From Bacteroidales bacterium (GTDB lineage Bacteria; Bacteroidota; Bacteroidia; Bacteroidales; VadinHA17): a stretch of 64,000 nt of DNA. The notes beneath the pieces were generated by a model. That model was given only the letters and a program-made list of their open reading frames with translations, did no database searches and was not told where the DNA came from. The DNA lies in NCBI GenBank assembly GCA_022865305.1, contig JALHSP010000074.1, positions 18,413 through 82,412 of the forward strand, in the 5' to 3' direction. The position numbers and the translations under genes are program-made. This document shows, one piece after another, positions 15,922-61,500 of this stretch; position 1 is the first letter of the stretch; each line of letters opens with the position of its first letter.

Positions 15922-17355
15922 TTAAAAATTAGCGTATACGAATTGCTGCGATTTAAGGCCTGTGACATAGATGATCGTGATAAGTATTGAATAGACAGTC
16001 CATCTTAACACCCTTTTGCTCTTGGCTTCACCTGACCAGAAGGCTTCAAGCTTCAGGTAAACATTATTGTAGTCATTTTGCAGGAGTTCCAGAAAGAGCA
16101 AGGCAGGAATAAATATCAAGACACCAAAAGGTTTAAGACTTATATCATCAAAGGGTGTTTCTCCGCTGAATCTGGTCAGTTTTGTCAAAAATGTCAATGC
16201 TGTTTTTACGTCGGGTGAGAAAAACAATACCATACACAAGCAGTAAAATAAATACGTTACGATTCTGCTAAACCATGTGTTCAGAAATATGGGAACTTTT
16301 GCAAACAATTTAACTCTGAGCTTTTTCGTAAAATACTCATAGTTAATTGCAATGGCCTGAAGGACTCCTATTAACATGAAAGTCCAGCCTGCTCCATGCC
16401 ATATTCCAAAAAGCATCCAGGTTATAAATATCGCATAGACCGAAGCCCACACCCCCCATTTTCTGTATCTGAAACTAGTTTGTTTGAACATATAATCATT
16501 AAACCAGGATGAAAGAGATATATGGAATCTTTTCCAGAAGGTTGTCATGTTTTCCGAAAAGAAGGGACGATTGAAGTTGGGTAAAAGATCTATACCAAAC
16601 ATCTTCGCTATACCAATAGCAATATCTGTATAACCTGAGAAATCAAAATACAGGTAAAGCGGATGAAGGATGAAAATTATCCATGAAGTAAATCCGTCGG
16701 AATAAGCGGTGTTTGTAAAAGAGTTGATCACATAGGGCGCCAGCTGGTTTGCCACAGCAACCTTCTTAAAAACTCCGATCAATACTATTCTTAGTCCTTC
16801 CGCCATCTGTTGCTCATTTATCTTTTTATCAAGACCTAATTGGGGAATAAAGTGATTGGAACGCTCAATAGGTCCGGAAAGGAACTTTGGATAGAAGGTG
16901 ATGTAAAGCAGGAATTTAAGCAGGTTCTTTTCAGGCTTCTCCCATCCCATTTTGACATTGATAAGAAATCCTATACCCTGCAGCGTGAAATAAGAAATAC
17001 CGACCGGAACCATAATCTCGGCAAGCCTGGATACGTAAATATTACTATTGAATAACTGCAGAAACGGATCAATGGTAAATGATGAATATTTCAGAATAAT
17101 CAGCTGTGACAAGTTTATGATAATTCCTGTTCTGAAGAGTGCAATCTTATGCTTTGATCCCGGGATCTTTTGCCCCAGAAAATAATTGATCAGAGAGTAA
17201 ACTAATACATATGGCAAAAGCAAAAAATTAAAAGTGGCAATAAATCCACAGCTTATCAGTACAAGGAATCCAACCCGGTACTTAGGGTTTAACAGGTAAA
17301 AAATAAAAATTGATAATACAACTAATAACGCAAACTTCAATGATATTATTCCCAT
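15922..17355 (-). CDS. second MBOAT family membrane O-acyltransferase
   Basis: FWKRFHISLSSWFNDYMF and GIWHGAG motifs. Polytopic. Confidence 0.9.
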   Translation of the reverse strand: MGIISLKFALLVVLSIFIFYLLNPKYRVGFLVLISCGFIATFNFLLLPYVLVYSLINYFLGQKIPGSKHKIALFRTGIIINLSQLIILKYSSFTIDPFLQLFNSNIYVSRLAEIMVPVGISYFTLQGIGFLINVKMGWEKPEKNLLKFLLYITFYPKFLSGPIERSNHFIPQLGLDKKINEQQMAEGLRIVLIGVFKKVAVANQLAPYVINSFTNTAYSDGFTSWIIFILHPLYLYFDFSGYTDIAIGIAKMFGIDLLPNFNRPFFSENMTTFWKRFHISLSSWFNDYMFKQTSFRYRKWGVWASVYAIFITWMLFGIWHGAGWTFMLIGVLQAIAINYEYFTKKLRVKLFAKVPIFLNTWFSRIVTYLFYCLCMVLFFSPDVKTALTFLTKLTRFSGETPFDDISLKPFGVLIFIPALLFLELLQNDYNNVYLKLEAFWSGEAKSKRVLRWTVYSILITIIYVTGLKSQQFVYANF

Positions 17356-17439
17356 TAATTCAGAGCTTAAGTGCTTATAATATTATAGAATCTGCCCAAA
17401 ATTGAAAACTAAATTTGACCGACAAACACAAGCTATTGA

Positions 17440-18639
17440 CTAACAGACTTTCCTGATACATTTCAATAATACTTCCAGTACTCTTTGCCGTTCTTCATCA
17501 GTCATGCCGGTGCCGGAAGGAAGACATAATCCATTTTGAAATAACCTTTCGGAGACCCCGCTAAGATAAGTCGGGTATACTGAGAAAACAGGCTGTAGAT
17601 GCATAGGCTTCCATAATGGTCTACTCTCAATATTATTCTCCTCCAACTGCTTCTGCAAATCCTCACGTGTAATTCCTGTTATTTCGGCATCGATAATAAC
17701 AGCAGTTAACCAGTGATTTGAAAAGTATGATTTATCAGGTTCTTCGAGAAATTTTAATCCTTGATATTTTTTCAGGTTTTCATAATAGAAGGAAAAATTT
17801 GATCTTCTTTGTTTTACTCTCTCATCAATAACCTCCATCTGCCCGCATCCAATTCCTGCAAGAACATTGCTCATCCGGTAATTATAACCGATCTGGCTAT
17901 GCTGATAATGCGGTGCTTTGTCCCGTGCCTGTGTCGCCAGAAATCTGGCTTTATCAATCATCTCTTTATCGTCTGAGATCAATGCTCCTCCTCCTGATGT
18001 TGTTATGATTTTATTCCCGTTGAAAGACAACACTCCCATTTTACCGAAAGTTCCAACTTGTTTCCCTTTATACTTACTGCCCAGGGCTTCCGCCGCATCT
18101 TCAATTACAGGTATATCGTATTTATTAGCTATAGCCATAATCCTGTCCATATTAGCTGGCATCCCGTATAAGTGAACAACAATGATTGCCTTGGGTAAGC
18201 GATGAGCGGTGAGAGGTGAGTGGTGAGATTTCCCTTGTGCCCTGCGCTCTGCGCCCTGCGCCCTGCGCCCTTTAATGGCTTCCTCAAGCAAGTCAGGGTC
18301 CATATTCCACGTTCCAGGTTCACTGTCAACCAGTACCGGTGTTGCTCCCAGGTAAACAATCGGATTTATAGTTGCTGAAAAAGTAAAGGAGGAAGCAATA
18401 ACTTCATCTCCAGGTTTGACTCCCAGCAGAATAAGGGCCAGGTGAATAGCCGCCGTTCCGGAGCTTAATGCCACAACATGCTTTATGCCACAATACCTGG
18501 CAATAGCTTCTTCAAAGGCATCTACATTCGCCCCAAGCGGAGCTATCCAGTTGGTGTCGAAAGCGACCTTAATATATTTTTGTTCAGCACCTCCCATATG
18601 CGGGCTTGAAAGGTAGATTCGTTTCTTATTTGTCAACAT
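17440..18639 (-). CDS. DegT/DnrJ/EryC1/StrS family PLP-dependent sugar aminotransferase carrying an in-frame ~25-aa repeat-encoded insertion
   Basis: Family pattern throughout (LSSGTAAIHLAL, IEDAAEALGS, SFNGNKIITTSGGGAL). Residues 124-148, GRRAQGAERRAQGKSHHSPLTAHRL, interrupt the usual ..EEAIK/..KAIIVVHLYG junction. Confidence 0.9.
   Translation of the reverse strand: MLTNKKRIYLSSPHMGGAEQKYIKVAFDTNWIAPLGANVDAFEEAIARYCGIKHVVALSSGTAAIHLALILLGVKPGDEVIASSFTFSATINPIVYLGATPVLVDSEPGTWNMDPDLLEEAIKGRRAQGAERRAQGKSHHSPLTAHRLPKAIIVVHLYGMPANMDRIMAIANKYDIPVIEDAAEALGSKYKGKQVGTFGKMGVLSFNGNKIITTSGGGALISDDKEMIDKARFLATQARDKAPHYQHSQIGYNYRMSNVLAGIGCGQMEVIDERVKQRRSNFSFYYENLKKYQGLKFLEEPDKSYFSNHWLTAVIIDAEITGITREDLQKQLEENNIESRPLWKPMHLQPVFSVYPTYLSGVSERLFQNGLCLPSGTGMTDEERQRVLEVLLKCIRKVC
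18194..18272. repeat. two abutting heptamer arrays inside the DegT coding sequence: (GGTGAGN)x5 then (GCGCCCT)x5
   Basis: Read directly: ggtaagc gatgagc ggtgaga ggtgagt ggtgaga tttccct t gtgccct gcgctct gcgccct gcgccct gcgccct. Confidence 0.85.
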
Positions 18640-18680
18640 TTGTGATAATTTGTTATTTCGGTGAATGCTAGTGCAAAGAG

Positions 18681-18743
18681 GTGAGCGGTGAGAGGTGAGC
18701 GGTGAGCGATGAGCGGTGAGTTATGAGCAATGAGTTTTGAGTC
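18681..18743. repeat. heptamer array (GTGAGCG-type, 9 units), left arm of zipper cassette A
   Basis: gtgagcg gtgagag gtgagcg gtgagcg atgagcg gtgagtt atgagca atgagtt ttgagtc. The core ggtgagcgatgagcg (18701-18715) is the exact reverse complement of 19160-19174. Confidence 0.85.
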
Positions 18744-18758
18744 TATAACAAATAGTAT

Positions 18759-19133
18759 TTAAGAACACCACTTATCAGGATGGTTGATCATGGATATCAG
18801 CATCTTGCGAACTTCATCATATTCATTCATTATTTCATCATGGATTTCATTTGAGATATACTTACAATCTCGTGAATAATCCAACCAGACTTCAGTTTCA
18901 TATTCTTCTCCTAATGAATCAGATAATTTATTTACAAAAGATTTGATATAACGCTTCTTTGCCCATGCTTCTGCAATATTTGATGTTACTGACCTCGACG
19001 AGCGACGAATCTGATCGATCAGAGAATACTTTTCTTCTTTTGGAAAATCTTTTGATATCTCAAATATCTTCATCGCCAGCTTATAAGCTTTCTGATATAC
19101 AATTAAATCCTTGAAACTATTTATCTGACTCAT
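18759..19133 (-). CDS. four-helix-bundle protein (23S rRNA intervening-sequence protein family, PF05635/TIGR02436-like)
   Basis: 124 aa. Family pattern FKDLIVYQKAYKLAMKIFEISKDFPKEEKYSLIDQIRRSSRSVTSNIAEAW. Confidence 0.85.
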   Translation of the reverse strand: MSQINSFKDLIVYQKAYKLAMKIFEISKDFPKEEKYSLIDQIRRSSRSVTSNIAEAWAKKRYIKSFVNKLSDSLGEEYETEVWLDYSRDCKYISNEIHDEIMNEYDEVRKMLISMINHPDKWCS

Positions 19134-19146
19134 AAATTGTAATCTA

Positions 19147-19195
19147 TCTCATTTCTCATCGCTCATCGCTCACCTCTCATCTCTATATTCTCACC
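19147..19195. repeat. heptamer array (TCTCATC/GCTCACC-type, 7 units), right arm of zipper cassette A
   Basis: tctcatt tctcatc gctcatc gctcacc tctcatc tctatat tctcacc. This is the complement flavour of 18681-18743. Confidence 0.85.
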
Positions 19196-19215
19196 GATGT
19201 AAAACAGGGCATACA

Positions 19216-20031
19216 TTACTCAAGAATAATCCTCCTTGAATCAAACGCCCAGGCCGCAAAATAACCCAGTGCACCATTAGTAATGTTTGATATGGGATTA
19301 TATGGAGTTGGAGGCATCACCCTTCTTTTCCAGAAAAGGATATCATTCAATTGTAAAAAATAGTTATAGACAGATTTATCAATGGAGAAAACCTGCACAT
19401 CAATTTCACCACCTTCATAAAATATACTTTCTGAAAAACTAATAATATTATTAGTATTGTTAATGATACCATCGTTGGTCTTTTCTTCAGTTAGAAGATA
19501 ATAACTGTCTTCTGCCATTGCACCATCCGAAATGAAGCGAACCAAATAGAAATTATCTGCATCGGGATTATCACTGAATTCGCACGTAATTGTGAATACT
19601 GTCTCTGCATTTGGATTTAATATGCTTTGTGATTGAGATTTAGTATAGCTAACTGAAATTAAATTTGTTTTCTGAGGCATGTATGAAATACCTTCATAAA
19701 TAATACCGTCATGTACTATCTCAATCTCGTAATTTTTTCCTTCAGTCCCAATAACGGAATCACCAATATAAAATCCATTACCAGTATAGCTCAGTTCCTG
19801 ATGTGAGGTTCCATCATTTATTATTATGCTGGCGTCTTCAATACATTGAGGTTCCTCCAGAGAAAAATAACTCGTAGTCTGAGTTAAACGGACAAGGCAG
19901 GTTGAGTCTTTATACATTTTACCTTCAACAACAAATGCAGGGTTAGCCGAATTCAGGTCGATATTAACTACCTCCTCACATGAAGCAATAATAATTAATA
20001 TAGAGATTGCGACTAAAGAATATTTGCTCAT
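19216..20031 (-). CDS. DUF4249-like lipoprotein, the usual partner of CarboxypepD_reg-type TonB receptors
   Basis: The internal ATG gives MSKYSLVAISILIIIASC|EE. Sits immediately downstream of the TonB-dependent receptor, as is typical for this pair. Confidence 0.65.
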   Translation of the reverse strand: MSKYSLVAISILIIIASCEEVVNIDLNSANPAFVVEGKMYKDSTCLVRLTQTTSYFSLEEPQCIEDASIIINDGTSHQELSYTGNGFYIGDSVIGTEGKNYEIEIVHDGIIYEGISYMPQKTNLISVSYTKSQSQSILNPNAETVFTITCEFSDNPDADNFYLVRFISDGAMAEDSYYLLTEEKTNDGIINNTNNIISFSESIFYEGGEIDVQVFSIDKSVYNYFLQLNDILFWKRRVMPPTPYNPISNITNGALGYFAAWAFDSRRIILE

Positions 20032-20041
20032 GAAACTTATT

Positions 20042-22351
20042 TTAAAACCTGAAATTATAGGTGATTGAAGGGACAATACCAAAGAGGCTTAGCTTCACTG
20101 CCTCTGTTGCTCCAGATAAAGTTTTGCTTCCGCGGAAACTAATTATATATGCGTTATGTCTGTTGTAAACGTTATAAACTGAGAAGGTCCAGTCCGACTT
20201 ATACTTTTTGAGATTCTTCCCATGTAAGGTCAGGCTGAGGTCAAGTCGGTGATAGGGAGGCATACGGTATCCATTTCGCTCAGTATAATAGGGTACAGGA
20301 TTATTGTCCACAATATACTTTCCGCTAGGGAAGGTAACTGCATTTCCCGTGGCATATGTCCAAACGCTTGATGTCGTCAATCGCTTACTGAGCTTATAAA
20401 TTGCAATAAAAGACACGTCATGTGTCTTATCAAACTTCATCGGATACCAGGAGAAATTGTTTATTCCTTCTATCTTAGCTTCTGCTCTTGACAGTGTATA
20501 GCTTATCCACCCTGTAAAATCTCCATACTTTTTCTTTATATAAAGTTCAAACCCATAGCTTCTTCCCTTTCCTGTAAGAATCTGCGATTCTGCATGCTCA
20601 TCAAAGATTATTTCAGCTCCATCTTCATAATCAACTGTATTAATCATGTTTTTGTAATAAACTTCTATTGATGTTTCAATGCTATTATTCAGAAAATTCC
20701 TGAATAAGCCTGCAGAAACCTGATCAACTAATACTGGTTTCAGATTATTGCTGCTCGGCATCCATACATCTGTAGGAGAGCCTGTTGTAGTGTTAGACAG
20801 AAGGTGTAAGTATTGTGCCATTCGATTGTATGACAACTTGATGGAACTTTTATCACTTAATATATAATTTACTGAAAGTCGGGGTTCAAGAGCAAAAAAG
20901 GGGTAAGCAGCTTTACCCGAACTATAATACGTTGAATCAACCGGCTCATTTTCTGGATTATATTTATAGAACCAACCCGGACCTATTTGACTAAAAATAG
21001 AAAACCTGAGACCATAATTTGCATTTAATTTTGATGTGATCTTATGTTCGCCTTGAACATATAAAGCACCTTCAAAGCCTCTTTTCTCCCTTAGAGCTAC
21101 TTCGAAGTCAATGCTATCATTAGTAGTTATTTCTCCTGGTCTGAACATGTGATAAGTAATATTCATGCCACTTTTTAAAGTGAAGTCCGGATTAATATAC
21201 CACGTTGCATCTTCTTTAAAGCTCAGGTCTTCAATGCCCGATTTAAGTCTCATGCCAAAAAGGCCGGAAATAAATCCATAATCATACTTGCTGTAAATCA
21301 TTGAGGTTTTGGAAAAAAGTTTCTTACTTAAGAGATGATTCCATCTTATTGTTCCTGTAGTATTTCCCCATATGGTTCCAACATCATTACCTAGTTCAAA
21401 TACATCTTTGCCAAAATAACCTGAAATAAACAACCTGTTTTTTTCATTAATAGTATAATTGAGTTTAGCATTAAAATCGTAGAAATAGAACTTCATATCA
21501 TGCCTGACCAGATCCTCGGGGAACAGAAGCCTGGCAACCAGATCACCATAGGTTCTTCTTCCTGACACAATAAAAGACATTTTATCTTTTATAATCGGGC
21601 CTTCAAAGGTCAAACGAGCAGAAATCAACCCTATTCCACCTGAGCTGCTGAATGTCTTGTTATTCCCATTATTCATTGTAATATCAAGCACAGACGATGC
21701 CCGGCCACCATAGCAGGCAGGTATGCCTCCCTTGTAAACAGTTACATCCTTTATAGCATCAGAATTAAATACTGAAAAGAAACCCATTAAATGAGAGGAA
21801 CTATACACTGATGCTTCATCAAGAAGAATCAGGTTCTGGCCCATTGATCCTCCACGCACATTAAAACCGGTGCTTCCTTCAGCCGAGCTGCTTATACCCG
21901 GAAGTAACTGGATTGTTTTCAGAATATCCTTTTCACCAAAAATAACAGGTATGGTTTCAATCTCCTTCAGATTCAATTTCTCAATACCTATTTCAGCCGA
22001 TGTGATCTTTATATCATTTCTTTCAGAGAATATAACAACTTCATCCAATGCCGTTACGGAAGGTGAAATTTCAATATTTAATATCTGGTTTTTATTAAAC
22101 TCCAATTCAAATTCCTTTTTTTCGTAACCTATATAACTACATCGTATTGTATATGTGCCTTCAGGGAGTGAAAGCGAATAAAAACCATATGAATTAGTTG
22201 CAACGCCTTTGGCAAGTTCAACCACCAGTACTGATACACCAATCAGGTCTTCTCCTGTTTCAACGTCAGTAATTTTCCCACTCACAGTATAGGTTTGCTG
22301 ACCAAAAGTCAATACAGGAAATAACGCAAAAAAAATGAATACTCTTTTCAT
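20042..22351 (-). CDS. TonB-dependent outer-membrane receptor with N-terminal carboxypeptidase-regulatory-like domain
   Basis: Signal peptide, then YTVSGKITDVETGEDLIGVSVLV..TNSYGFYSLSLPEGTYTIRCSYIGYE (CarbopepD_reg). Plug region follows (LPGISSSAEGSTGFNVRGG). The beta-barrel ends in an aromatic residue (..YNFRF). Confidence 0.9.
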   Translation of the reverse strand: MKRVFIFFALFPVLTFGQQTYTVSGKITDVETGEDLIGVSVLVVELAKGVATNSYGFYSLSLPEGTYTIRCSYIGYEKKEFELEFNKNQILNIEISPSVTALDEVVIFSERNDIKITSAEIGIEKLNLKEIETIPVIFGEKDILKTIQLLPGISSSAEGSTGFNVRGGSMGQNLILLDEASVYSSSHLMGFFSVFNSDAIKDVTVYKGGIPACYGGRASSVLDITMNNGNNKTFSSSGGIGLISARLTFEGPIIKDKMSFIVSGRRTYGDLVARLLFPEDLVRHDMKFYFYDFNAKLNYTINEKNRLFISGYFGKDVFELGNDVGTIWGNTTGTIRWNHLLSKKLFSKTSMIYSKYDYGFISGLFGMRLKSGIEDLSFKEDATWYINPDFTLKSGMNITYHMFRPGEITTNDSIDFEVALREKRGFEGALYVQGEHKITSKLNANYGLRFSIFSQIGPGWFYKYNPENEPVDSTYYSSGKAAYPFFALEPRLSVNYILSDKSSIKLSYNRMAQYLHLLSNTTTGSPTDVWMPSSNNLKPVLVDQVSAGLFRNFLNNSIETSIEVYYKNMINTVDYEDGAEIIFDEHAESQILTGKGRSYGFELYIKKKYGDFTGWISYTLSRAEAKIEGINNFSWYPMKFDKTHDVSFIAIYKLSKRLTTSSVWTYATGNAVTFPSGKYIVDNNPVPYYTERNGYRMPPYHRLDLSLTLHGKNLKKYKSDWTFSVYNVYNRHNAYIISFRGSKTLSGATEAVKLSLFGIVPSITYNFRF

Positions 22352-22395
22352 TCTTTTAATCTTCGTGCATTACTGTATATCAGGATTAAGACAAT

Positions 22396-22423
22396 GAACT
22401 CTGAGTCTGGAACTCTGAACTTT
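22396..22423. repeat. short heptamer array (GAACTCT-type, 4 units)
   Basis: gaactct gagtctg gaactct gaacttt in the intergenic region upstream of the TonB receptor gene. No complementary arm found. Confidence 0.4.
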
Positions 22424-22456
22424 TAAATGTTCTGCTCCACACTAGCTGAAAGGTGA

Positions 22457-22479
22457 TTCTTCAAAGGCATCTACATTCG
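22457..22479 (-). other. 23-nt exact copy of a DegT 5' coding segment (identical to 18508-18530); remnant reads ..SGPNVDAFEES..
   Basis: ttcttcaaaggcatctacattcg occurs at both positions. Flanking sequence keeps weak similarity for ~10 more nt, then diverges. Confidence 0.7.
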
Positions 22480-22588
22480 GACCAGATGGAAATTTGATTA
22501 AATTTTGCGGTATTGTCTTGCGGCTGAACAGGGAATTTTATATTTATGATTATAACCATAAAGGAACAAAATCCTGGTCACATTTTTT

Positions 22589-23173
22589 TCAGGCTCCTCG
22601 TCTGAAAATTGTCTGCAGGATAATCACAATATCGCCAAAGAAACTCCTGTTCATATAGTACTGGAGATTTAATCTTACTTTATCTGGCCATAATACATTA
22701 TCATTATATTCCTGTGGAGAAGATACATAGGATAGAAGCTCTTCTTCATTGGCATATTTTAAGGATGCCGGGCCTGTAATTCCGGGACGAAGTTCAAGAA
22801 TCTTTTTTTCTTCACCGGTAAGCTTATTTATATATTCAGGCAAGTCAGGTCGCGGACCGACAAAACTCATATCTCCCTTCAGTACATTCCAGAGTTCAGG
22901 TAGTTCATCCAGCTTATATTTGCGCAATTTTGTTCCAAGTGGTGTTATACGGCTCTCTCCCCTGACCGAGATGCTGCTTCCTCCATGGTCAACAACCATT
23001 GTTCGGAATTTATAAAGTATAAATAGCTTTCCATGCTTCCCTGCTCTTTTCTGGCAGAAGAACATAGGCCCCGGCATTCGCATCCTGATTAGTAATGCTA
23101 TTAATAAAAATAGCGGAAAAAGAATGAGCAGCCCTAAAAATGAAGCGATAATGTCAAAGAGCCTCTTAATCAT
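22589..23173 (-). CDS. undecaprenyl-phosphate sugar-phosphate transferase (small PglC/WbaP-C-terminal-type initiating enzyme)
   Basis: MIKRLFDIIASFLGLLILFPLFLLIALLI.., KFRTM, DELPELWNVLKGDMSFVGPRP. Confidence 0.9.
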   Translation of the reverse strand: MIKRLFDIIASFLGLLILFPLFLLIALLIRMRMPGPMFFCQKRAGKHGKLFILYKFRTMVVDHGGSSISVRGESRITPLGTKLRKYKLDELPELWNVLKGDMSFVGPRPDLPEYINKLTGEEKKILELRPGITGPASLKYANEEELLSYVSSPQEYNDNVLWPDKVRLNLQYYMNRSFFGDIVIILQTIFRRGA

Positions 23174-23182
23174 TATTCAGGA

Positions 23183-23245
23183 AGGTATTCAGTATTCAGT
23201 ATTCAGTATTCAGTATTCAGTCATCTAATTACCGATCACGGATTA
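23183..23245. repeat. heptamer array: GGTATTC followed by four perfect AGTATTC units, then attaccg-type units; left side of cassette B
   Basis: ggtattc agtattc agtattc agtattc agtattc agtcatc taattac cgatcac ggattac. Confidence 0.85.
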
Positions 23246-23624
23246 CTGTTCTTAATGCAAAAGGTTGAGGATTTATCAATCATTTTTTGAGGCATTCTTC
23301 CGATGGATTCACATTTATGCAATAACCGCTCAGTCTCTTCTGAATCAATATATTGACACTCTTCTGATACCTCAATCCAATGCTGGGTTTCCATCTGTTC
23401 AGCATCTGCATCTGTCAGCTTTGAAATAAAATGCATCTCGTATCTTCTTTTCCCCAAGCCTCGGCGATTTGCGCACCAATCGATCTTGAAGATCTTCTTA
23501 TCTGGTCAGTTAAGGAATATTTTTCTTCTTTTGGAAAGTTTTTACTCACAAAATATATTGCCTTAGCAACTTCCCGTGAAAGTTTATATACCTCAAGATC
23601 CCGAAAACTTGTCACATACACCAT
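23236..23624 (-). pseudogene. four-helix-bundle (23S rRNA IVS protein family) gene split by a 1-nt frameshift in a G4A4 run
   Basis: ORF 23415-23624 (..KEEKYSLTDQIRRSSRSIGAQIAEAWGKE) continues in another frame as ORF 23236-23457 (GKRRYEMHFISKLTDADAEQMETQHWIE..). The switch lies at ttttcccc, 23447-23454. Confidence 0.8.
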
Positions 23625-23644
23625 TATTACTTTATTTTACAAAT

Positions 23645-23686
23645 AGTACTGATTACCGATTACTGAATACCGATCACTGATTACCC
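23645..23686. repeat. heptamer array (ATTACYG-type, 6 units), right side of cassette B; overlaps the stop codon of the GNAT gene
   Basis: agtactg attaccg attactg aataccg atcactg attaccc. The reverse-complement units cagtaat/cggtatt match the left-arm CAGTATT register at 5-6 of 7 positions. Confidence 0.8.
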
Positions 23687-24279
23687 TCATGATTTTTTAT
23701 AAATTCCACCAGCAAATAATCATTCTGCAATTCCTTAAGTATAACCATCGTTGTGTTTTTTAAATGTGCCCACATTACAGCAGTATTATGTCTTGAGATG
23801 GTTGAAAGACACCTGAAATTCATCCTCCAGGCTGTCTCATACATAATATTATTCATTACCCTCCCTATTTCACGCCCTCTGTAATTTACATCAATCAGCC
23901 TCCCCACAAAGCACTTCTTATTCAAAAAGAAGCGCAGAAAAAAATATCCAACCAGTTTATTTTCACTAAATGTTCCCATCATCAGAAAGGCATTTTTTCT
24001 CAGCTGTTGTTGAAGAGAATTCAAGTCGAATTCATGTGGATGGAAAAAATCAAGATCCGGGACAGGCTGAGATTTTATTAGGTCATAAAGCTGGATCATG
24101 TCATCGGAATTAAGTCTTCTATAAGAAAACGGAGAGACAGAAAACTCATTGAACACATCCGGTAATATTTTTTCCATCTTGTATTTAAATAAAATCATGA
24201 ACAGGAATCCATTACCCCACTCTATTAACTTCCACAGAATACTAAAATGATGCTTAATGAAGATCAGAATTTTTTCCAT
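23674..24279 (-). CDS. GNAT-like acetyltransferase
   Basis: ..LVGYFFLRFF..VGRLIDVNYRGREIGRVMNNIMYETAW.. (R-G-x-x-I-G acetyl-CoA loop). Confidence 0.6.
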   Translation of the reverse strand: MEKILIFIKHHFSILWKLIEWGNGFLFMILFKYKMEKILPDVFNEFSVSPFSYRRLNSDDMIQLYDLIKSQPVPDLDFFHPHEFDLNSLQQQLRKNAFLMMGTFSENKLVGYFFLRFFLNKKCFVGRLIDVNYRGREIGRVMNNIMYETAWRMNFRCLSTISRHNTAVMWAHLKNTTMVILKELQNDYLLVEFIKNHEGNQ

Positions 24280-25286
24280 TACTGATACTTTTCCAGTTCA
24301 TTCTTAAGTCCTTGCTTAACAGGTAGTTGCCAAAGCAGCTTACACCAGTTATGATTGCCTTCAATAAGTTCAGGGCCCCCAGAGGTTACAGCTATATCCC
24401 AGCCAACTGACCTGTTTTCAGGTGTATGAAAAGCAGCTCTTTCAGCCAGATCAATAACCTCATTCCAGAAAGGAATAACAAATCCTGTAATAGGCTTTCC
24501 TGTCACAGGATGAATGCTGTGTTCCGGTTTCGTGATATCGCTATATACACCTATGCCCGTTACGATCCCGGTCTGCAAGTCAATGGCTGCAGCAAGATTA
24601 CCTGCAGCCATATTGTCAACATGGGAATTTACTGAAATCCTTAAACGGGCGCCAAGAAAATCGACATGACCCCCGGTCATCTGAGTAATGATTCTTACAC
24701 TATTAAGACCTGATGGCGACAGATCCATCAAGGCTGGATTCTGGACAATATACTCTTCGACAAGATCATAACCCTTTTTCTCCATATGATCAATAAGGGA
24801 GGCGGGAGAGTAATCAATACAGCTAATTACTTCAACTTCGGCACCAATCTGTCCCCGCGAACCTTTAATTACAAGTTTACCCGATTTATTTGCCAGAAGT
24901 TCTTCGATTTTTCTGCTGTTACCTTTAAGTGTTTGAATATCAGAATAGCGTCTTCTTATGAATGACTTAAAATGATTTAAAAATTTTATTTTGTCTGAGA
25001 GGACTTCCCTGGATCCTACTGGATTCATTTTCAACTGGTACTCATACATGTAACCAGTTCCAGCCCATTGAGAGCGTTCGGAATTATCCTTTGAGAAGAA
25101 TCTGAAACAAAAATAATCCAGTAAAGAAATATTATACTTAAACACTGAATAAACTGAATCTGTCAGCAGGTTGATTTTAGATTTGCCTGAAGATTTTGAT
25201 GCATGGCTTAGAAACCTGCCAAACTTCTGAAAATCGAGTTCTTTAATGTAATACAGCAAATAAACAAAAGGTCCTTTAAGCATCAT
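24279..25286 (-). CDS. sugar-transfer-associated ATP-grasp family ligase
   Basis: ..SPSGLNSVRIITQ.., NMAAGNLAAAIDLQTGIV, HPVTGKPITGFVIPFWNEV, VGWDIAVTSGGPELIEGNHNW are typical of the ATPgrasp_ST / alpha-L-glutamate-ligase-related family. Confidence 0.75.
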   Translation of the reverse strand: MMLKGPFVYLLYYIKELDFQKFGRFLSHASKSSGKSKINLLTDSVYSVFKYNISLLDYFCFRFFSKDNSERSQWAGTGYMYEYQLKMNPVGSREVLSDKIKFLNHFKSFIRRRYSDIQTLKGNSRKIEELLANKSGKLVIKGSRGQIGAEVEVISCIDYSPASLIDHMEKKGYDLVEEYIVQNPALMDLSPSGLNSVRIITQMTGGHVDFLGARLRISVNSHVDNMAAGNLAAAIDLQTGIVTGIGVYSDITKPEHSIHPVTGKPITGFVIPFWNEVIDLAERAAFHTPENRSVGWDIAVTSGGPELIEGNHNWCKLLWQLPVKQGLKNELEKYQ

Positions 25287-37553: not shown

Positions 37554-38660
37554 TCAGTATACTATTTTACTGATAATATCTACTATACGTTGAGCTGCTT
37601 TGCCATCCCACATTGGTGGTATTACCCCTCTCTTCCATTCACTATTAAATAGCTTTGTAAGTGCAGGTTTAATACAATCAGGATTAGTGCTAATCAGCTC
37701 ATTTGTCCCTAAAGAAACAGTTTCCGGCCGTTCCGTATTATCTCTCAAGGTGATACATGGTACGCCCATAACTGTAGTTTCCTCTGTTATACCCCCTGAA
37801 TCGGTGATGACAGCTTTTGCGTGTTGTACAAGATAGTTGAATTCAAGGTAGCCGAGCGGCTGGAGAAGGTGTAAGTTGTAAGCAGTGAGTAGTGAGTGGT
37901 GAGATATAAGGTCATTAATTTTTTTAGCTGTCCGCGGGTGAACCGGGAAAATGATAGGAATATTCTGTGATGATTCAATGATAGCTTCCAGTAACGCCTT
38001 TAGCTGTAAGTCGTTATCAACATTATTTGGCCTGTGAAGTGTAATTACGAGGTAATTACCTTCCTGAAGTCCGAATTCTTCCCATATCTCTGGCTTCCGA
38101 AACCTAGTCTGGTTGGCTAGAAGCGTGTCAATCATTACATTGCCGACAAAGTAAATACGTTTCTCAGGGACTCCGGCTTTTCGTAAATTATCATTTGCTG
38201 TTTCACTTGTTGTAAAGAAATAATCGGCTAGACAGTCTGTAACCATCCGGTTGATCTCCTCAGGCATTGTAAGATCAAAAGATCGCAGGCCACCTTCAAC
38301 ATGAGCTACCCTGGTAATCATTTTCTTGGCCACAATTGCACATGCCATAGTAGAGGTCACATCTCCGACAACAATCACCAGGTCAGCAGGATTTAATAAT
38401 AAATACTTTTCATAAGCAATCATGATTGCTGCAGTTTGCTCAGCCTGTGTTCCTCCTCCACAACCCAGGTTGACATCAGGCGAAGGAATGTTGAGTTCTT
38501 TGAAGAAAGCGTTACTCATCTTCTCATCATAATGCTGACCTGTATGAACTAACCTATAAGAAATATCATGTCCTTTCTCCTTCGCTTCATGAATTGCATT
38601 AATTATGGGTGCAATCTTCATGAAGTTTGGTCGTGCACCGGCAATGAGATGGAGTTTCAT
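37554..38660 (-). CDS. wecB: UDP-N-acetylglucosamine 2-epimerase (non-hydrolysing)
   Basis: MKLHLIAGARPNFMKIAPI, HTGQHYD, VVGDVTSTMACA, HVEGGLRSFD, PEEINR, VITDSGGITEETTVMGVPCITLRDNTERPETV. Confidence 0.92.
   Translation of the reverse strand: MKLHLIAGARPNFMKIAPIINAIHEAKEKGHDISYRLVHTGQHYDEKMSNAFFKELNIPSPDVNLGCGGGTQAEQTAAIMIAYEKYLLLNPADLVIVVGDVTSTMACAIVAKKMITRVAHVEGGLRSFDLTMPEEINRMVTDCLADYFFTTSETANDNLRKAGVPEKRIYFVGNVMIDTLLANQTRFRKPEIWEEFGLQEGNYLVITLHRPNNVDNDLQLKALLEAIIESSQNIPIIFPVHPRTAKKINDLISHHSLLTAYNLHLLQPLGYLEFNYLVQHAKAVITDSGGITEETTVMGVPCITLRDNTERPETVSLGTNELISTNPDCIKPALTKLFNSEWKRGVIPPMWDGKAAQRIVDIISKIVY
37871..37905. repeat. heptamer array (GTRAGNN x5) inside the wecB coding sequence
   Basis: gtaagtt gtaagca gtgagta gtgagtg gtgagat encodes ISHHSLLTAYNL on the minus strand. 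Confidence 0.75.
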
Positions 38661-38697: not shown

Positions 38698-38781
38698 GAC
38701 CGAAGACCGAAGATCGATGTATTAGGTTCAACTCCTGTCTTCCGTCTTCCGTCTTCCGTCTTCCGCCTTCAACCTTCCTCA
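38698..38781. repeat. empty zipper hairpin: (GACCGAA)x3, 14-nt loop, (TTCCGTC)x5-7
   Basis: gaccgaa gaccgaa gatcgat | gtattaggttcaac | tcctgtc ttccgtc ttccgtc ttccgtc ttccgcc ttcaacc ttcctca. Six of 7 positions pair per unit. The right arm runs into the stop codon and last 7 codons of 38769-40940. Confidence 0.8.
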
Positions 38782-54087: not shown

Positions 54088-54165
54088 AAGACAAAAGTTA
54101 AAAGATAAAAGTATTAATCTTTGAGTCCTTCACTTTTGTCTTGTGAATTTTATCTTTTGTCTTTT
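54088..54165. repeat. empty zipper hairpin (GACAAAA / CTTTTGT flavour) just upstream of the capD-like start codon
   Basis: aagacaaaagttaaaagataaaag | 21-nt loop | cttttgtcttgtgaattttatcttttgtctttt. Perfect sub-stems are aagacaaaag/cttttgtctt and aaaagataaaa/ttttatctttt. Confidence 0.7.
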
Positions 54166-56688: not shown

Positions 56689-56728
56689 GGTTTTCGTTTT
56701 ACTAGATAGAAGTGCCTGGTTATTTAAA

Positions 56729-56878
56729 GTTGGCAGTTGGCAGTTGGCAGTTGGCAATCTTTGTTTCTTGTGTATATTATTTCAGGGGAAAATTTCAGGA
56801 ATTTCTATTATAATCCTGATCTATTACTTAAAATCTAAAATTTAACTTTTTGCCAACTGCATTTTGCCAACTGCAATT
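56729..56878. repeat. empty zipper hairpin: (GTTGGCA)x4, ~94-nt loop, TGCCAAC-type arm
   Basis: Four perfect gttggca units at 56729-56756, and tgccaac tgcattt tgccaac tgcaatt at 56851-56878. Two 10-bp perfect matches gcagttggca/tgccaactgc. Confidence 0.75.
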
Positions 56879-56953
56879 TTTTGCTAAGGTAAGTAATTAA
56901 GTCGCGTTAAGAATCGAAAGTAATGTGCACTGCTTTAATGCTTAATAATCCGC

Positions 56954-57069
56954 CTAGTGCCGCGGAACATATTTCTCAGGATTTTCCACCATATGATTCA
57001 ACATCCTGCCTACTTCTTCCAAATTGTCAATAAGTTCCAGATATTCTTCGTGAGTGATATAGTTACACT
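56954..57069 (-). pseudogene. 3' remnant (~38 codons) of a four-helix-bundle gene, truncated exactly at the left arm of cassette C
   Basis: Own translation gives KCNYITHEEYLELIDNLEEVGRMLNHMVENPEKYVPRH*. This aligns with the C-terminus of the 18759-19133 product (DCKYISNEIHDEIMNEYDEVRKMLISMINHPDKW). Confidence 0.6.
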
Positions 57070-57123
57070 TAGAATGCCTAGAGTGCCTAAAGTGCCTAGA
57101 GTGCCTAAAGTTGATTAAGTTTG
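57070..57123. repeat. 9-mer array (TAGAGTGCC/TAAAGTGCC type), left arm of cassette C
   Basis: tagaatgcc tagagtgcc taaagtgcc tagagtgcc taaagttga ttaagtttg. agtgcctaaagtt (57100-57112) is the exact reverse complement of 57528-57540. Confidence 0.8.
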
Positions 57124-57126
57124 AAG

Positions 57127-57513
57127 TTATTGTAGTTTTGAAGTTTTACCAATCGAGGTAAAAATTGCCAGTAATTCTATTGCTTCGTTCATTACAGGTT
57201 CCGTTTTTTGTGAGTTGATCCAGTTAAGATCAATTATAATTTCCAGCCAATAGATAGTCTCACTGGCTTCGCTTTCACAAATTCTTATTTTATTTATAAA
57301 ATCAGCTTTACTTCTTGCCCGGTTGGCTTCTCTGTAATTTGCACCAACACTTGTTCCTGCCTTTGTGAATTGATTCCTAATTATTTTCCCTTCAGGTGAT
57401 CCTGGTAAAAGAACAGATAGTTTTATAACACTGATAGCAAATTTCTTCGTTCTTCCCTCCAGTTGCCTGGCAAACTCTTTATTATCCATAACTTCAATTT
57501 TAATAACTCCCAA
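57127..57513 (-). CDS. four-helix-bundle protein (23S rRNA intervening-sequence protein family)
   Basis: 128 aa. ..FAISVIKLSVLLPGSPEGKIIRNQFTKAGTSVGANYREANRARSKADFINKIRICESEASETIYWLE.. is the typical family pattern. Confidence 0.85.
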   Translation of the reverse strand: MGVIKIEVMDNKEFARQLEGRTKKFAISVIKLSVLLPGSPEGKIIRNQFTKAGTSVGANYREANRARSKADFINKIRICESEASETIYWLEIIIDLNWINSQKTEPVMNEAIELLAIFTSIGKTSKLQ

Positions 57514-57540
57514 CTTTAGGCATTCCTAACTTTAGGCACT
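57512..57540. repeat. right arm of cassette C (AACTTTAGGCA repeat), abutting the PorP/SprF stop codon
   Basis: aactttaggcattcct aactttaggcact. Confidence 0.75.
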
Positions 57541-58577: not shown

Positions 58578-61500
58578 TTATCTTCTTATAACAATATAAC
58601 CACCAATTGCATTGCTGTTTGTCGGTTTCAGAATGAAGAAATAAGTGTCATCAGGAAGAGGATTGTTATTATAGTCAACTCCATCCCATTCGTTTTGATA
58701 ATCTCTGTTCAGGTAAACCTGTGCTCCTCTCCTGTCAAATACCACGAGTTCAGTTTTTCCGAGTGTCTCAATTCCACGTAATACGAAGTAATCATTTTTC
58801 CCATCCATATTAGGGGTAATGAGAGTCGGAATGACCAGGTTATTAACAGTAATTATTATATAGTCTTTTGCCGGAGAACATACTCCATTAGTTACTGTCC
58901 ACAAAAGAATGTTTTCACCTAGTTGAAGTCCGGTTACATATGTTTCTGAAGAATCAGCATCAGAGAATTCAGCGGAACCTGATTCGAGAGACCATATCCC
59001 GGTCTCATGAATATCCAGGTCAGCTGCTTCCATTTTTGTTTCAAACAGATATTCCAATACTCTGTCAGGACCTGCATCAGCGACAGGTTTATTCCAAATC
59101 TCAACTTTTACCGAATCAATATTTTTACATCCATATATGTCAGTTAATGTAACCTTATACATGGTAGTTGTTTCCGGAGAAGCTACCGGATCAGATATAC
59201 CAGGATTATCCAACATTGTTTCCGGATCCCAGAAGAAGGTCCCGGTACCAAGTGCATGAAGCTGGACAGATCCTCCTTCACAGAGGATGGTATCTCTGCC
59301 GGCATCAATCGATGGTAAACTTCTGAATATTACCCTGATTATATCTGTAGATTTGCATGTACTGTTTGATTCAGTCCAGGCAAAGTCATATGTACCAAAC
59401 TGGTCCACCGTGACAGTAGCATCAGGCTGATTCGGATCCGGACTAAAGATAGCATTCCCGGGTCCGCTGGATTTAGTCCATGTGCCTGTACCGGAACCAG
59501 GTGTTGCATTCAGGCTGAAATCAAGGTCGCATTCTTCCCCGCCATTTCCCGCATCTGCTGCCGGTGCTTTAATGAAAATAACATTTGTCGAAGCAATATC
59601 TGAACATGTTCCGTTTACTTCTGTCCATGTGAAGGTATAAGATCCATAAGCTGATACAGTAACTTTAGCATTGGGTGCGTTAGCACTTGGAGTGAATGTT
59701 GCTGTTCCTGATCCTGCGGTCTTGGTCCATGTACCGACTCCGACACTTGGAACTGCATTAAGGAAAAATTCCGGACCACAGTTATTGCCGCCTGTTCCGG
59801 GATTAGCATTTGGTTGCTCGTAAAAGTTAACTGTAACTGCAGCACTTTTTGAACATACCACATTTAATTCTGTCCATGTAAATATATAAGTCCCGTATTC
59901 AGATACTGTAACTGTTGCTGTTGGTGAATTTGCACTTGGTGCGAATTCTGCTGTCCCGGGTCCGCTGGTCTTTGTCCAGGTTCCTGTACCAATGTTTAGA
60001 ACCGCACTGAATTTGAAGTTCAGATCGCACTCGTTGCCTCCGGTTCCGGGATTAACTACAGGCTGTCTGTAGAAGTTGACTGTAATTGATGAACTGCTTG
60101 AACAGGTTACATTGACTTCAGTCCAGGTAAAGGTATATGTCCCATATGCTGAAACTGTAACCGTTGCAGTTGGGCTGTTAGCATTTGGTGTGAACGTTGC
60201 AGTGCCCGGTCCGGCAGTTTTAGTCCATGTACCGACTCCAATACTAGGCACTGCATTAAAGATGACTGTCAGATCACACTCATCTCCTCCTTTACCGGCA
60301 TTTGCCAATGGTACTGCATTGACAGTCACAACAGCAGTACCTGTTTGTGTCTGTGAACAACCTGTGGTACTTGCATCCCGGACATTTACCAGTGCATAAG
60401 TAAATATTCCTGAGATACCTGTCGGAACTGGCAATGTAACACTGTTACCTACTGTTGTTGTGATGGTCTGGTTACTGCCATTATTGATCTTATAAGTGAA
60501 TGTATAAGGTGCTGTGCCTGATGCTCCCGTGAAAGCTATATTTGGAGAGGCTGCATCTTTACATACTGTCGTGGTTCCGCTTATGGTAGCCGTTGGCAAT
60601 GGATTAACCGTTATAGTAGCGCTGCCTCCCTGTAGCTGTGAACAGCCTGAAGTACTTCCGTCCCGGACACTTACCAATGTATAAATAAATGTTCCTGCAG
60701 TACCTGTAGATACTGCTACAGTAACACTATTACCACTTGTTGTTGTAACGGTCTGATTACTGCCACTATTGATCTGATAAGTAAAGGTATAAGGTGCTGT
60801 ACCTGATGCTCCCGTGAAAGTAATATTCGGAGAAGCTGCATCTTTGCATACCACTGTGGTTCCGCTGATTGATGCAGTTGGTAATGGATTAACAGTAACA
60901 ATTGCACTGCCTGTTTGTGCCTGCGAACAGGTTGTAATACTTGCATCCCTGACACTTACAAGTGAATATGTAAATGTACCTGCTGTACCGGTGGGTACTG
61001 ATACAGTAACACTGTTACCTGATGTTGTTGTAACTGTCTGGTTGCTTCCACTGTTAATGGTATAGGTGAAAGTATAAGGTGCTGTACCATTTGCTCCTGT
61101 GAAAGTAATATTTGGTGAAGCTACATCTTTACATATCACTGTCGTTCCACTTATCGTCGCTGTTGGTAATGGATTGACTGTTATTGTAGCACTGCCACCC
61201 TGTATCTGCGAGCATGCCGTGGTGCTTCCATCACGAACGCTTACCAGCGCATATGTAAATATTCCAACTGTACCTGTGGGTGCCGGAACCGTCACACTAT
61301 TGCCTGAGGTTGTAGTAACAGTCTGATTGCTTCCGCTATTTATTGTGTAAGTAAAGGTATAGGGTGCTGTACCATTTGCTCCGGTGAATGTAACATTCGG
61401 CGAGGCTGCATCTTTACATACTGCTGTTGTTCCGCTTATGGTTGCTGTTGGTAATGTATTAACTGTTACTACTGCACTACCTGTTTGTGTCTGTGAACAA

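Follow-up and report, generated by a model that had tools for sequence, protein, structure and literature searches.

The 64,000-nt stretch analysed here (contig JALHSP010000074.1 of a Bacteroidales bacterium; hereafter the window) carries an intact gene for a four-helix-bundle protein of the PF05635 (S23p) family that is framed by two mutually complementary arrays of tandem heptamers. The gene and its two arms, together termed cassette A, lie on the minus strand, with a co-oriented DUF4249 gene upstream and a co-oriented gene for a DegT/LegC-type aminotransferase downstream. From the coordinates of these two genes (Table 1), the start codon of the latter having been confirmed by homologue alignment, the intergenic gap is placed at 18640-19215. 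As the original prediction had proposed from the sequence, the cassette takes up this whole 576-nt gap, leaving only 20 nt and 41 nt at its ends.

The enclosed open reading frame (ORF) encodes a full-length member of both PF05635 ('23S rRNA intervening sequence protein'; E = 1.4e-35, 122.2 bits against a cut-off of 33.8, profile positions 1-105 of 106) and TIGR02436 ('four helix bundle protein'; E = 9.6e-33, 112.7 bits, cut-off 24). Structural relatives are the PDB entries 2rld (E = 1.9e-13; a protein of Bacteroides thetaiotaomicron) and 2gsc, for each of which five chains were deposited. Relative to its closest homologues the gene has a ratio of nonsynonymous to synonymous substitution rates (dN/dS) of 0.04-0.07 (about 0.05), while synonymous sites are saturated (dS > 1.4), which indicates that the protein is functional and that the copies are old. 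The four-helix-bundle gene is thus intact, as first proposed. An identical protein (P0001; 100% identity) is present in a Bacteroidales metagenome-assembled genome (MAG), and 5,562 relatives were retrieved at E ≤ 1e-5; looking up the exact sequence of the protein returned no contig. The PADLOC models of defence proteins matched neither this protein nor that of a divergent cassette elsewhere in the window (cassette C), and a scan of viral contigs yielded no close relatives of the cassette A protein and hence no support for carriage by phages. The only other Pfam match was to bAvd (PF22296; E = 6.3e-09, under the family cut-off). This weak homology recalls Avd, the accessory protein of diversity-generating retroelements (DGRs), which we considered and rejected as an identity for the protein: the Avd model NF033474, which has a cut-off of 80 bits, scored 33; the arrays on the flanks are tandem and inverted, in contrast to direct repeats of ~130 bp; and no pair of template and variable repeats was seen. 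The search for a reverse transcriptase covered the five genes within ~3-4 kb of cassette A (MBOAT, DegT, DUF4249, TonB-dependent receptor and Bac_transf) and found none.

Tandem Repeats Finder (TRF) reported three period-7 arrays around the gene, at 18680-18720 (5.9 copies, 88% matches), 18717-18742 (3.7 copies, 73%) and 19147-19184 (5.4 copies, 83%). Read on the plus strand, these consist of GGTGAGC-type heptamers at 18680-18742 and of CTCATCG/CTCACC-type heptamers at 19147-19184. A repeat search paired 18680-18727 with 19148-19195 as an inverted repeat of 48 nt with 79% complementarity, and three further registers, shifted by approximately one unit, reached 76-83%. The arms are therefore reverse-complementary tandem heptamers, and the predicted ability of the stem to form in several registers was borne out by the four registers found. 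The previously noted exact complement at the core of the arms was also recovered: the 15-mer GGTGAGCGATGAGCG has exactly two copies in the window, at 18701-18715 on the plus strand and at 19160-19174 on the minus strand, against a chance expectation of 0.01. The earlier unit counts of nine and seven are fair, but generous in that the outermost units of both arrays are degenerate. As sense RNA, the arm duplex has a predicted energy of -66.7 kcal/mol, compared with -31.8 ± 4.6 kcal/mol when the 3' arm is shuffled (z = -7.6). When the entire gap was folded as minus-strand RNA, arm paired with arm (z = -3.3).

Table 1. Coordinates of cassette A, its neighbours and related repeat features in the window
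Feature	Coordinates	Strand	Remarks
PF05635 (S23p) / TIGR02436 four-helix-bundle gene, cassette A	18759..19133	(-)	in loop of stem; intact, 124 aa; profile matches
5' arm, cassette A	19147..19195	(-)	~7 purine-/G-rich heptamers, GGTGAGA / GATGAGC type; end 14 nt before ATG
3' arm, cassette A	18681..18743	(-)	~9 C-rich heptamers, CTCACCG / CTCATCG type; start 15 nt past stop codon
Spacer, DUF4249 stop codon to 5' arm	19196..19215	(-)	20 nt
Spacer, 3' arm to DegT start codon	18640..18680	(-)	41 nt; no TAnnTTTG box on direct reading
DUF4249 gene	19216..20082	(-)	upstream, co-oriented; presumed source of read-through transcription; profile match
DegT/LegC-type aminotransferase gene	17440..18639	(-)	downstream, co-oriented, followed by MBOAT; profile match
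In-frame CTCACC-type heptamer array in DegT coding sequence	18194..18227	(-)	near copy of cassette A 3' arm; 1 mismatch to arm core
Cassette B	23185..23685	(-)	PF05635 gene frameshifted, halves 23415-23624 and 23236-23457; GGTAATC/AGTGATC and ACTGAAT arrays on flanks
Cassette C, divergent subfamily	57070..57538	(-)	intact PF05635 gene 57127-57513; complementary 9-mer arrays GTGCCTAAA / TTTAGGCAC
ORF-less zipper	56728..56879	(-)	AGTTGGC x4 facing GCCAACT x2, ~90 nt between; -38.1 kcal/mol, z = -8.3
ORF-less pairing, weak	38698..38770	(-)	GGAAGAC x4 / GTCTTCG x2-3; spacer between dehydrogenase and UDP-GlcNAc 2-epimerase genes

This anatomy closely resembles that of the S23p-encoding intervening sequences (IVSs) of 23S rRNA in Coxiella burnetii and Leptospira (PMC4990558). 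The Coxiella IVS measures 428 nt, contains an S23p ORF and ends in a 28-bp terminal stem within which RNase III cuts; its ATG is preceded by tandem GACAGAT heptamers, usually three but two in some strains, and IVS elements replace hairpin loops in rRNA (PMC4990558). Cassette A shares with these elements the PF05635 gene in the loop, the overall size of ~0.43-0.5 kb, complementary termini that form a long stem, and an ORF in the sense orientation of the host transcript with no recognised promoter of its own. As in Coxiella, where the copy number varies between strains, tandem heptamers (here the array at 19147-19184) lie just upstream of the S23p ORF. There are also differences. Cassette A is located between two protein genes and not in helix 9, 25 or 45 of 23S rRNA, and both of its arms are long tandem arrays, unlike the unique inverted repeat of 28 bp in Coxiella. 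In line with this location, an Rfam scan of 17000-24500 at E ≤ 1 returned no family, rRNA included. The protein of cassette A is under strong purifying selection, in contrast to the Coxiella ORF, which is in decay and probably not translated. Cleavage by RNase III, which has been shown for the Coxiella IVS, is what we infer for cassette A.

The original prediction treated the cassette as a local arrangement, but it proved to be one member of a large conserved class. To survey the repeat arms family-wide, two sets of loci were assembled: a scan of a genome collection with the cassette A protein gave 80 loci, 74 of them usable (subfamily A; 50-87% identity; mostly Bacteroidales, plus MAGs labelled as other phyla), and 58 usable loci came from metagenomes scanned with the protein of the divergent cassette C (subfamily C). 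Complementarity of the arms was scored without gaps and compared with shuffles, and periodicity was taken from TRF, which replaced a strict criterion (75% self-match over 35 nt) that under-called degenerate arrays. Arms that were more complementary than every shuffle were found at 61/74 subfamily A loci and 46/58 subfamily C loci. Ungapped stems had a median length of 31 bp. The best TRF array of subfamily A had a period of 7 or 14 upstream of the gene at 54 and downstream at 63 of the 74 loci. Units are usually 7 nt long and sometimes 6-10 nt (the arms of locus L086, for example, have period 8); in subfamily C, close relatives have 9-mers, and relatives at 35-50% identity have 7-8-mers (GGATTGC, TGATGTA, TTTACGA, GAATTGA). 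The gene-in-stem layout is thus a property of the PF05635 family, and the normal state of its genes within ordinary operons. Both the anatomy of cassette A and its membership of this class can be assigned with high confidence.

The sequence of the units differs from locus to locus, subfamily A alone including GGTGAGA, TGAGTAG, GCGTAAA, GAGATAT, AGGTGTC, GGCAATA, GAGTTCA, GTAAGTA and others. Within a locus the two arms match each other. Where both arms of a subfamily A locus had period 7, the upstream unit and the reverse complement of the downstream unit differed by 0-2 positions in 21/22 cases, and a 5' arm had its own 3' arm among its five best partners at 32/74 loci, compared with 5 expected (P = 2e-18). 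A compensatory change is visible at the junction of a PorP/SprF gene and an OmpA-family gene, where cassette C resides: the window and L089 have GTGCCTAAAG/CTTTAGGCAC arms, and L093 has GTACTTAGAG/CTCTAAGTAC. Differences in copy number preclude a reliable alignment of the periodic arms. Since the units differ between loci but match within each locus, the arms covary, which means that pairing and periodicity are kept while the sequence itself is free. This freedom bears on the idea that a multimeric PF05635 protein binds its own flanking units, as RNA or DNA, for autoregulation or as part of a ribonucleoprotein, by analogy with the binding of Avd to paired RNA around the DGR template. The relation to bAvd (below the cut-off), the five chains of 2rld and 2gsc and the periodicity of the arms, which suggests multivalent binding, are compatible with such a binding array. 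We nevertheless consider it improbable: proteins that are 77-87% identical to that of cassette A, itself under strong purifying selection, are accompanied by units as unrelated as GGTGAGA, GCGTAAA and GAGATAT, which makes sequence-specific recognition of the units unlikely, and zippers that enclose no ORF persist, one of them conserved between genomes.

The arms have a fixed polarity. On the sense strand, the 5' arm shows a positive GC skew at 47/49 subfamily A loci and 37/38 subfamily C loci (84/87 together), so that the G-rich arm comes first and the C-rich arm last. As a side observation, the upstream arm is C-rich, as an exception to this rule, at two loci (L028 and L032) where the 3' flank passes via CTCAC-type heptamers directly into a second start of the type ATG-TCCCAAATCAATAGTTTT...; these look like two tandem cassettes with a common array. 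The upstream gene has the same orientation as the cassette at 60/62 subfamily A and 31/31 subfamily C loci (91/93 together), and both neighbours are co-oriented at 51 and 26 loci, respectively. The three cassettes of the window conform to this, each being on the same strand as both of its neighbours and within a gene cluster. In Carboxylicivirga (L042), the cassette occupies the full gap that separates gmd from fcl, which encode two enzymes of one pathway, and the flanks of L045, L047, L050 and L054 read like this setting. Carriers of PF05635 genes include Carboxylicivirga, Labilibacter and Maribellus, the first two with the gene between gmd and fcl. The order PorP/SprF, cassette, OmpA is found in the window and in L170, L171, L174 and L175. 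The GDP-fucose synthase gene downstream of the cassette in L042 (1921-3018) encodes 365 residues, which match the 308-position model in two stretches, and may itself contain an insertion.

Promoter searches pointed in the same direction. At 2/74 subfamily A loci a Bacteroidetes -7 box (TAnnTTTG) was present in the 120 nt that precede the ATG, as compared with 3.9 in shuffles, and the box is therefore not conserved; a sigma-70 scan near cassette A detected no promoter-like site on the minus strand. The sole terminator-like hit on the minus strand nearby (19269-19249) was disregarded, being weak and located within the DUF4249 coding region. Lying in a co-directional gene cluster and having no recognisable promoter of its own, the cassette is most likely transcribed within read-through RNA of the upstream gene, and the comparative data thus favour the read-through that the original prediction had considered. 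Taken together, the polarity, the co-orientation and the promoter-box result suggest that the cassette is transcribed from the host operon and that its role is linked to the sense transcript. The same regularities argue against the view that the arrays have no function at all and are by-products of polymerase slippage, copied across by template switching, that hitch-hike beside an ordinary gene with its own promoter. Polarity and co-orientation are too regular for drift, and complementary arms recur in two subfamilies, down to ~35% identity and in MAGs of several phyla, although synonymous sites are saturated. There is some ground for this view in the abundance of heptamers, which in most genomes outnumber every other class of long simple-sequence repeats according to the survey by Mrazek (2007), as cited in PMC4679880, in the paired inverted heptamer arrays of unassigned function in Xanthomonas (PMC4692102), and in the arrays of the window that lie away from PF05635 genes or inside coding regions (18194-18271 and 37884-37903). 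On balance, an absence of function appears unlikely to us.

The reading that we favour, and that we hold to be probable by a narrow measure, is that cassette A belongs to the S23p-encoding IVS type as a free-standing element outside rRNA, residing in an mRNA operon, transcribed by read-through and probably excised or insulated by means of its stem. In this scheme, read-through RNA from the upstream gene would include the cassette, and the G-rich 5' arm would pair with the C-rich 3' arm that is made ~450 nt later, giving a stem of ~35-50 bp. The stem would loop out the ORF and bring the ends of the flanking host genes together. As the most likely consequence, RNase III would cut the stem of 30 bp or more, as it does in the rRNA version; for this step the analogy gives us moderate confidence. 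The cut would release a 'panhandle' cassette mRNA with paired ends, while both host mRNA halves would keep base-paired, protected ends, like the rRNA halves. An element of ~0.5 kb could thereby live inside an operon without polar damage. The fixed polarity would also make sense, in that a G-rich, C-poor 5' arm would not fold on itself, would, on a more speculative note, be a poor loading site for Rho, and could wait for the 3' arm; the periodicity of the arms would make the pairing tolerant of slippage.

Several points weigh against this reading. Other promoters may exist in spite of the absent TAnnTTTG box. The downstream gene has the opposite orientation at 14/93 loci, so that the cassette ends a co-directional run and does not link co-transcribed genes, and a benefit by insulation is inapplicable there. 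Long-range pairing could be impeded by ribosomes that translate the ORF and by the distance of 450 nt between the arms, and the reading does not account for the role of the protein. The mismatches between the arms, moreover, give no sign of selection on the sense RNA specifically. The original prediction held that the G/A variation among units is tolerated as G-U wobble, and this did not survive inspection: the best register of cassette A as sense RNA has 32 Watson-Crick pairs, 2 A.C, 0 G.U and 3 other mismatches, and the antisense RNA would pair better than the sense RNA (-74.8 vs -65.2 kcal/mol). Family-wide, G.U and A.C mismatches are equally common, with 50 vs 47 in subfamily A and 21 vs 25 in subfamily C. 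Finally, co-transcription, formation of the stem in vivo, cleavage by RNase III, an advantage for the host operon and whatever role the protein may have are all inferred.

The flat mismatch spectrum does not discriminate between maintenance of the arms at the RNA level and at the DNA level. We think that arm complementarity is probably renewed by homogenisation of the DNA, through slippage and template switching, and not by tolerance of RNA wobble. A symmetric spectrum also fits a DNA process of another kind, in which the arms are cruciforms or single-strand hairpins that serve as recombination sites of a mobile cassette, with the PF05635 protein as movement factor; mobility of IVS elements was suggested by Ralph and McClelland, as cited in PMC4990558. 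The distribution of the cassettes is indeed sporadic. The DegT-MBOAT order of the window recurs in the homologous loci L081 and L083, and the DegT-MBOAT loci of relatives have neither a cassette nor arrays upstream. We looked for a true empty site where DUF4249 and DegT adjoin but found none among relatives with DegT-MBOAT synteny; as these relatives have different upstream genes, the comparison supports only that the cassette is not conserved there. Within a single conserved operon of the type IX secretion system (T9SS), the cassette follows PorP in some genomes and precedes it, one gene further upstream, in L169, and L086 has a PF05635 gene at another position of a polysaccharide locus. Replacement of rRNA hairpin loops by IVS elements (PMC4990558) would be in agreement with movement as well. 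Even the closest copies, however, are separated by dS > 1.4, so that no recent transposition is visible, and the arm sequences of different copies offer no single terminal repeat that a protein could recognise. Pfam matches of the protein were confined to PF05635 and bAvd, the seven genes scanned next to cassettes A and B include no transposase or integrase, viral contigs contain no close relatives, and neither the arm polarity nor the upstream co-orientation would be expected of a purely DNA-level hairpin site. DNA-level mobility thus seems rather unlikely to us, although it retains somewhat more weight than the other alternatives.

Two conventional types of mobile element were rejected on similar grounds. 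Against an insertion sequence or miniature inverted-repeat transposable element stand the arm units, which differ between the copies in the window (GTGAGCG, GGTAATC and GTGCCTAAA) and between loci; the neighbours scanned around cassettes A and B contained no transposase, and target-site duplications were not sought systematically. An integron gene cassette does not fit an ORF with repeats on both sides that pair with each other, nor single inserts in ordinary operons; no integrase was present among the neighbours scanned, and attC motifs were not searched for.

The number of units is evidently not fixed. The 3' arm of cassette C has four units in the window and seven in L089, where the protein is 98% identical. 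Such changes are familiar from the 5' untranslated region (UTR) of hmw1A in Haemophilus influenzae, where a heptamer repeat and a G-rich arm form a long hairpin that is cut by RNase III, and where both RNase III and the hairpin are required for changes in repeat length (PMC12721329). Cassette A is similar in that a tandem heptamer array of an mRNA is predicted to pair with a complementary G-rich segment, which in hmw1A yields an RNase III substrate with a dynamic repeat number. The hmw1A hairpin differs in enclosing no gene, in being located in a 5' UTR with its own promoter ahead of it, and in having only one repeat arm and no link to PF05635. By this precedent, slippage might alter the number of units, and with it the length of the stem and the expression of downstream genes for surface structures, such as those in polysaccharide and T9SS adhesin operons. 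The polysaccharide and T9SS loci that harbour the cassettes, both here and in relatives, would be appropriate targets, and heptamer number also differs among Coxiella strains. Such a switch nonetheless fails to explain the conserved protein gene in the loop. Slippage is also less easy in imperfect repeats, such as these arms, than in perfect ones, and gmd-fcl is a metabolic pair and not a classical phase-variable gene. We accordingly give a repeat-length switch little credence. Covariation, polarity, co-orientation and the conserved protein are together explained better by the proposed read-through and stem mechanism than by any of the rivals, which are not mutually exclusive with it.

The window contains two further cassettes. 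Cassette B lies between two co-oriented genes, 23674..24279 (no Pfam hit) and a Bac_transf sugar transferase gene, and is a pseudogene with the frameshift near 23415-23457. Its 3' flank is a mixture of five ACTGAAT units and three directly oriented units of the 5'-arm type; a strong duplex is predicted all the same (-54.6 kcal/mol, z = -9.6). The arms of cassette C form a predicted duplex of -33.3 kcal/mol (z = -7.3), and a putative gene fragment is present at 56957-57145. In L173 (3419-3586), the PorP-OmpA spacer retains ~60 nt of the 3' end of a cassette, comprising the last PF05635 codons and a partial 3' arm (tattgggaaaaa...ctttaagtattttaggcact). This remnant is a deletion derivative, from which it follows that cassettes decay by internal deletion.

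Zippers without an ORF were found as well. The stronger of the two in the window lies just upstream of the OmpA-family gene, and the same AGTTGGC/GCCAACT unit occurs at the same operon junction in L169 (3419-3470; PorP 85% identical), where it forms a tight hairpin with a 15-nt loop. It may be either a conserved intercistronic hairpin or what remains after the loss of a cassette. The pairing at 38698..38770 was rated marginal because its duplex z-score is only -2.7. Comparable structures have been reported before: intergenic GGGAATC heptamers in Xanthomonas form 70-75 convergent plus/minus-strand pairs that are able to fold into stem-loops and have no assigned function (PMC4692102), and heptamer direct repeats (TAACTGA) are found in Beggiatoaceae, Cyanobacteria and Bacteroidetes (PMC4679880). 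The inverted pairs of Xanthomonas resemble the ORF-less zippers at 56728-56879 and in L169. In contrast to the present loci, where the units are locus-specific and frame a gene family, these reports describe genomes in which a single unit dominates, and their arrays neither enclose a gene nor are connected with PF05635.

Proteins of the PF05635/TIGR02436 type number in the thousands in Bacteroidota and other phyla, and structures have been solved, but we know of no function for them. The rRNA intervening sequences, in turn, have been regarded as unexplained 'selfish' oddities since about 1990. A gene-in-stem module in operons links these two puzzles, suggests an origin for the rRNA IVSs and gives a testable model of read-through transcription, a long-range stem and RNase III. 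In bioRxiv and the open-access part of PubMed Central we found no report that connects non-ribosomal PF05635 genes with repeat arms, which is no proof of absence; an operon-borne S23p cassette of the IVS type is apparently undescribed. In a broader and distinctly more tentative extension, PF05635 genes could be the cargo of widespread, undescribed operon-resident 'mRNA intervening sequences' with arms of free sequence and fixed polarity. Such elements might be removed or insulated at the RNA level via the stem, their arms kept complementary through repeat dynamics of the hmw1A kind, linked to transcription or to RNase III, and their protein might act on the duplex. The IVSs of 23S rRNA would then be rare landings in rRNA hairpin loops, and the ORF-less zippers of Bacteroidota, possibly also those of Xanthomonas, decayed remnants or landing sites. 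The module may also explain part of the intergenic heptamer arrays reported in several phyla, and it is of practical concern in that such arrays interrupt the assembly of metagenomes and enter enzyme genes in frame.

An in-frame insertion of this kind is found in the DegT gene itself, 490 nt from the 3' arm of cassette A. Here, two adjacent in-frame arrays (18194-18271; sense GGGCGCA x4, then CTCACC-type x5) add ~26 residues (RRAQGAERRAQGKSHHSPLTAHRLP) in a hypervariable loop, where homologues have other low-complexity inserts of 0-50 residues and the closest ones show only a short 'RRAQGAERKV' version. The CTCACC-type array pairs with the 5' arm of cassette A at -45.8 kcal/mol (z = -6.1) and is a possible alternative partner of that arm. 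Likewise, three in-frame CTCAC-type heptamers (21 nt; 37884-37903) lie inside the UDP-GlcNAc 2-epimerase gene (Epimerase_2 coding sequence 37554-38660, minus strand), the product of which still matches the Pfam model from end to end. In-frame arrays in an intact epimerase indicate that such repeat arrays invade coding regions when their length is a multiple of three.

Two further repeat features lie in the same part of the window as cassette C. An inverted pair of A-rich and T-rich repeats (AAGACAAAAG...CTTTTGTCTT) at 54088-54165, ~370 nt downstream of the OmpA-family gene, encloses no ORF. Upstream of PorP/SprF, a 285-bp tandem repeat at 60309-64000 (~8 + 3 copies, 78-79% matches) translates into repeats of ~95 residues within an ORF on the minus strand (58578-63992) of at least 1,804 aa, whose start lies within 9 nt of the end of the window and may be truncated; its product is presumably a T9SS-secreted adhesin.

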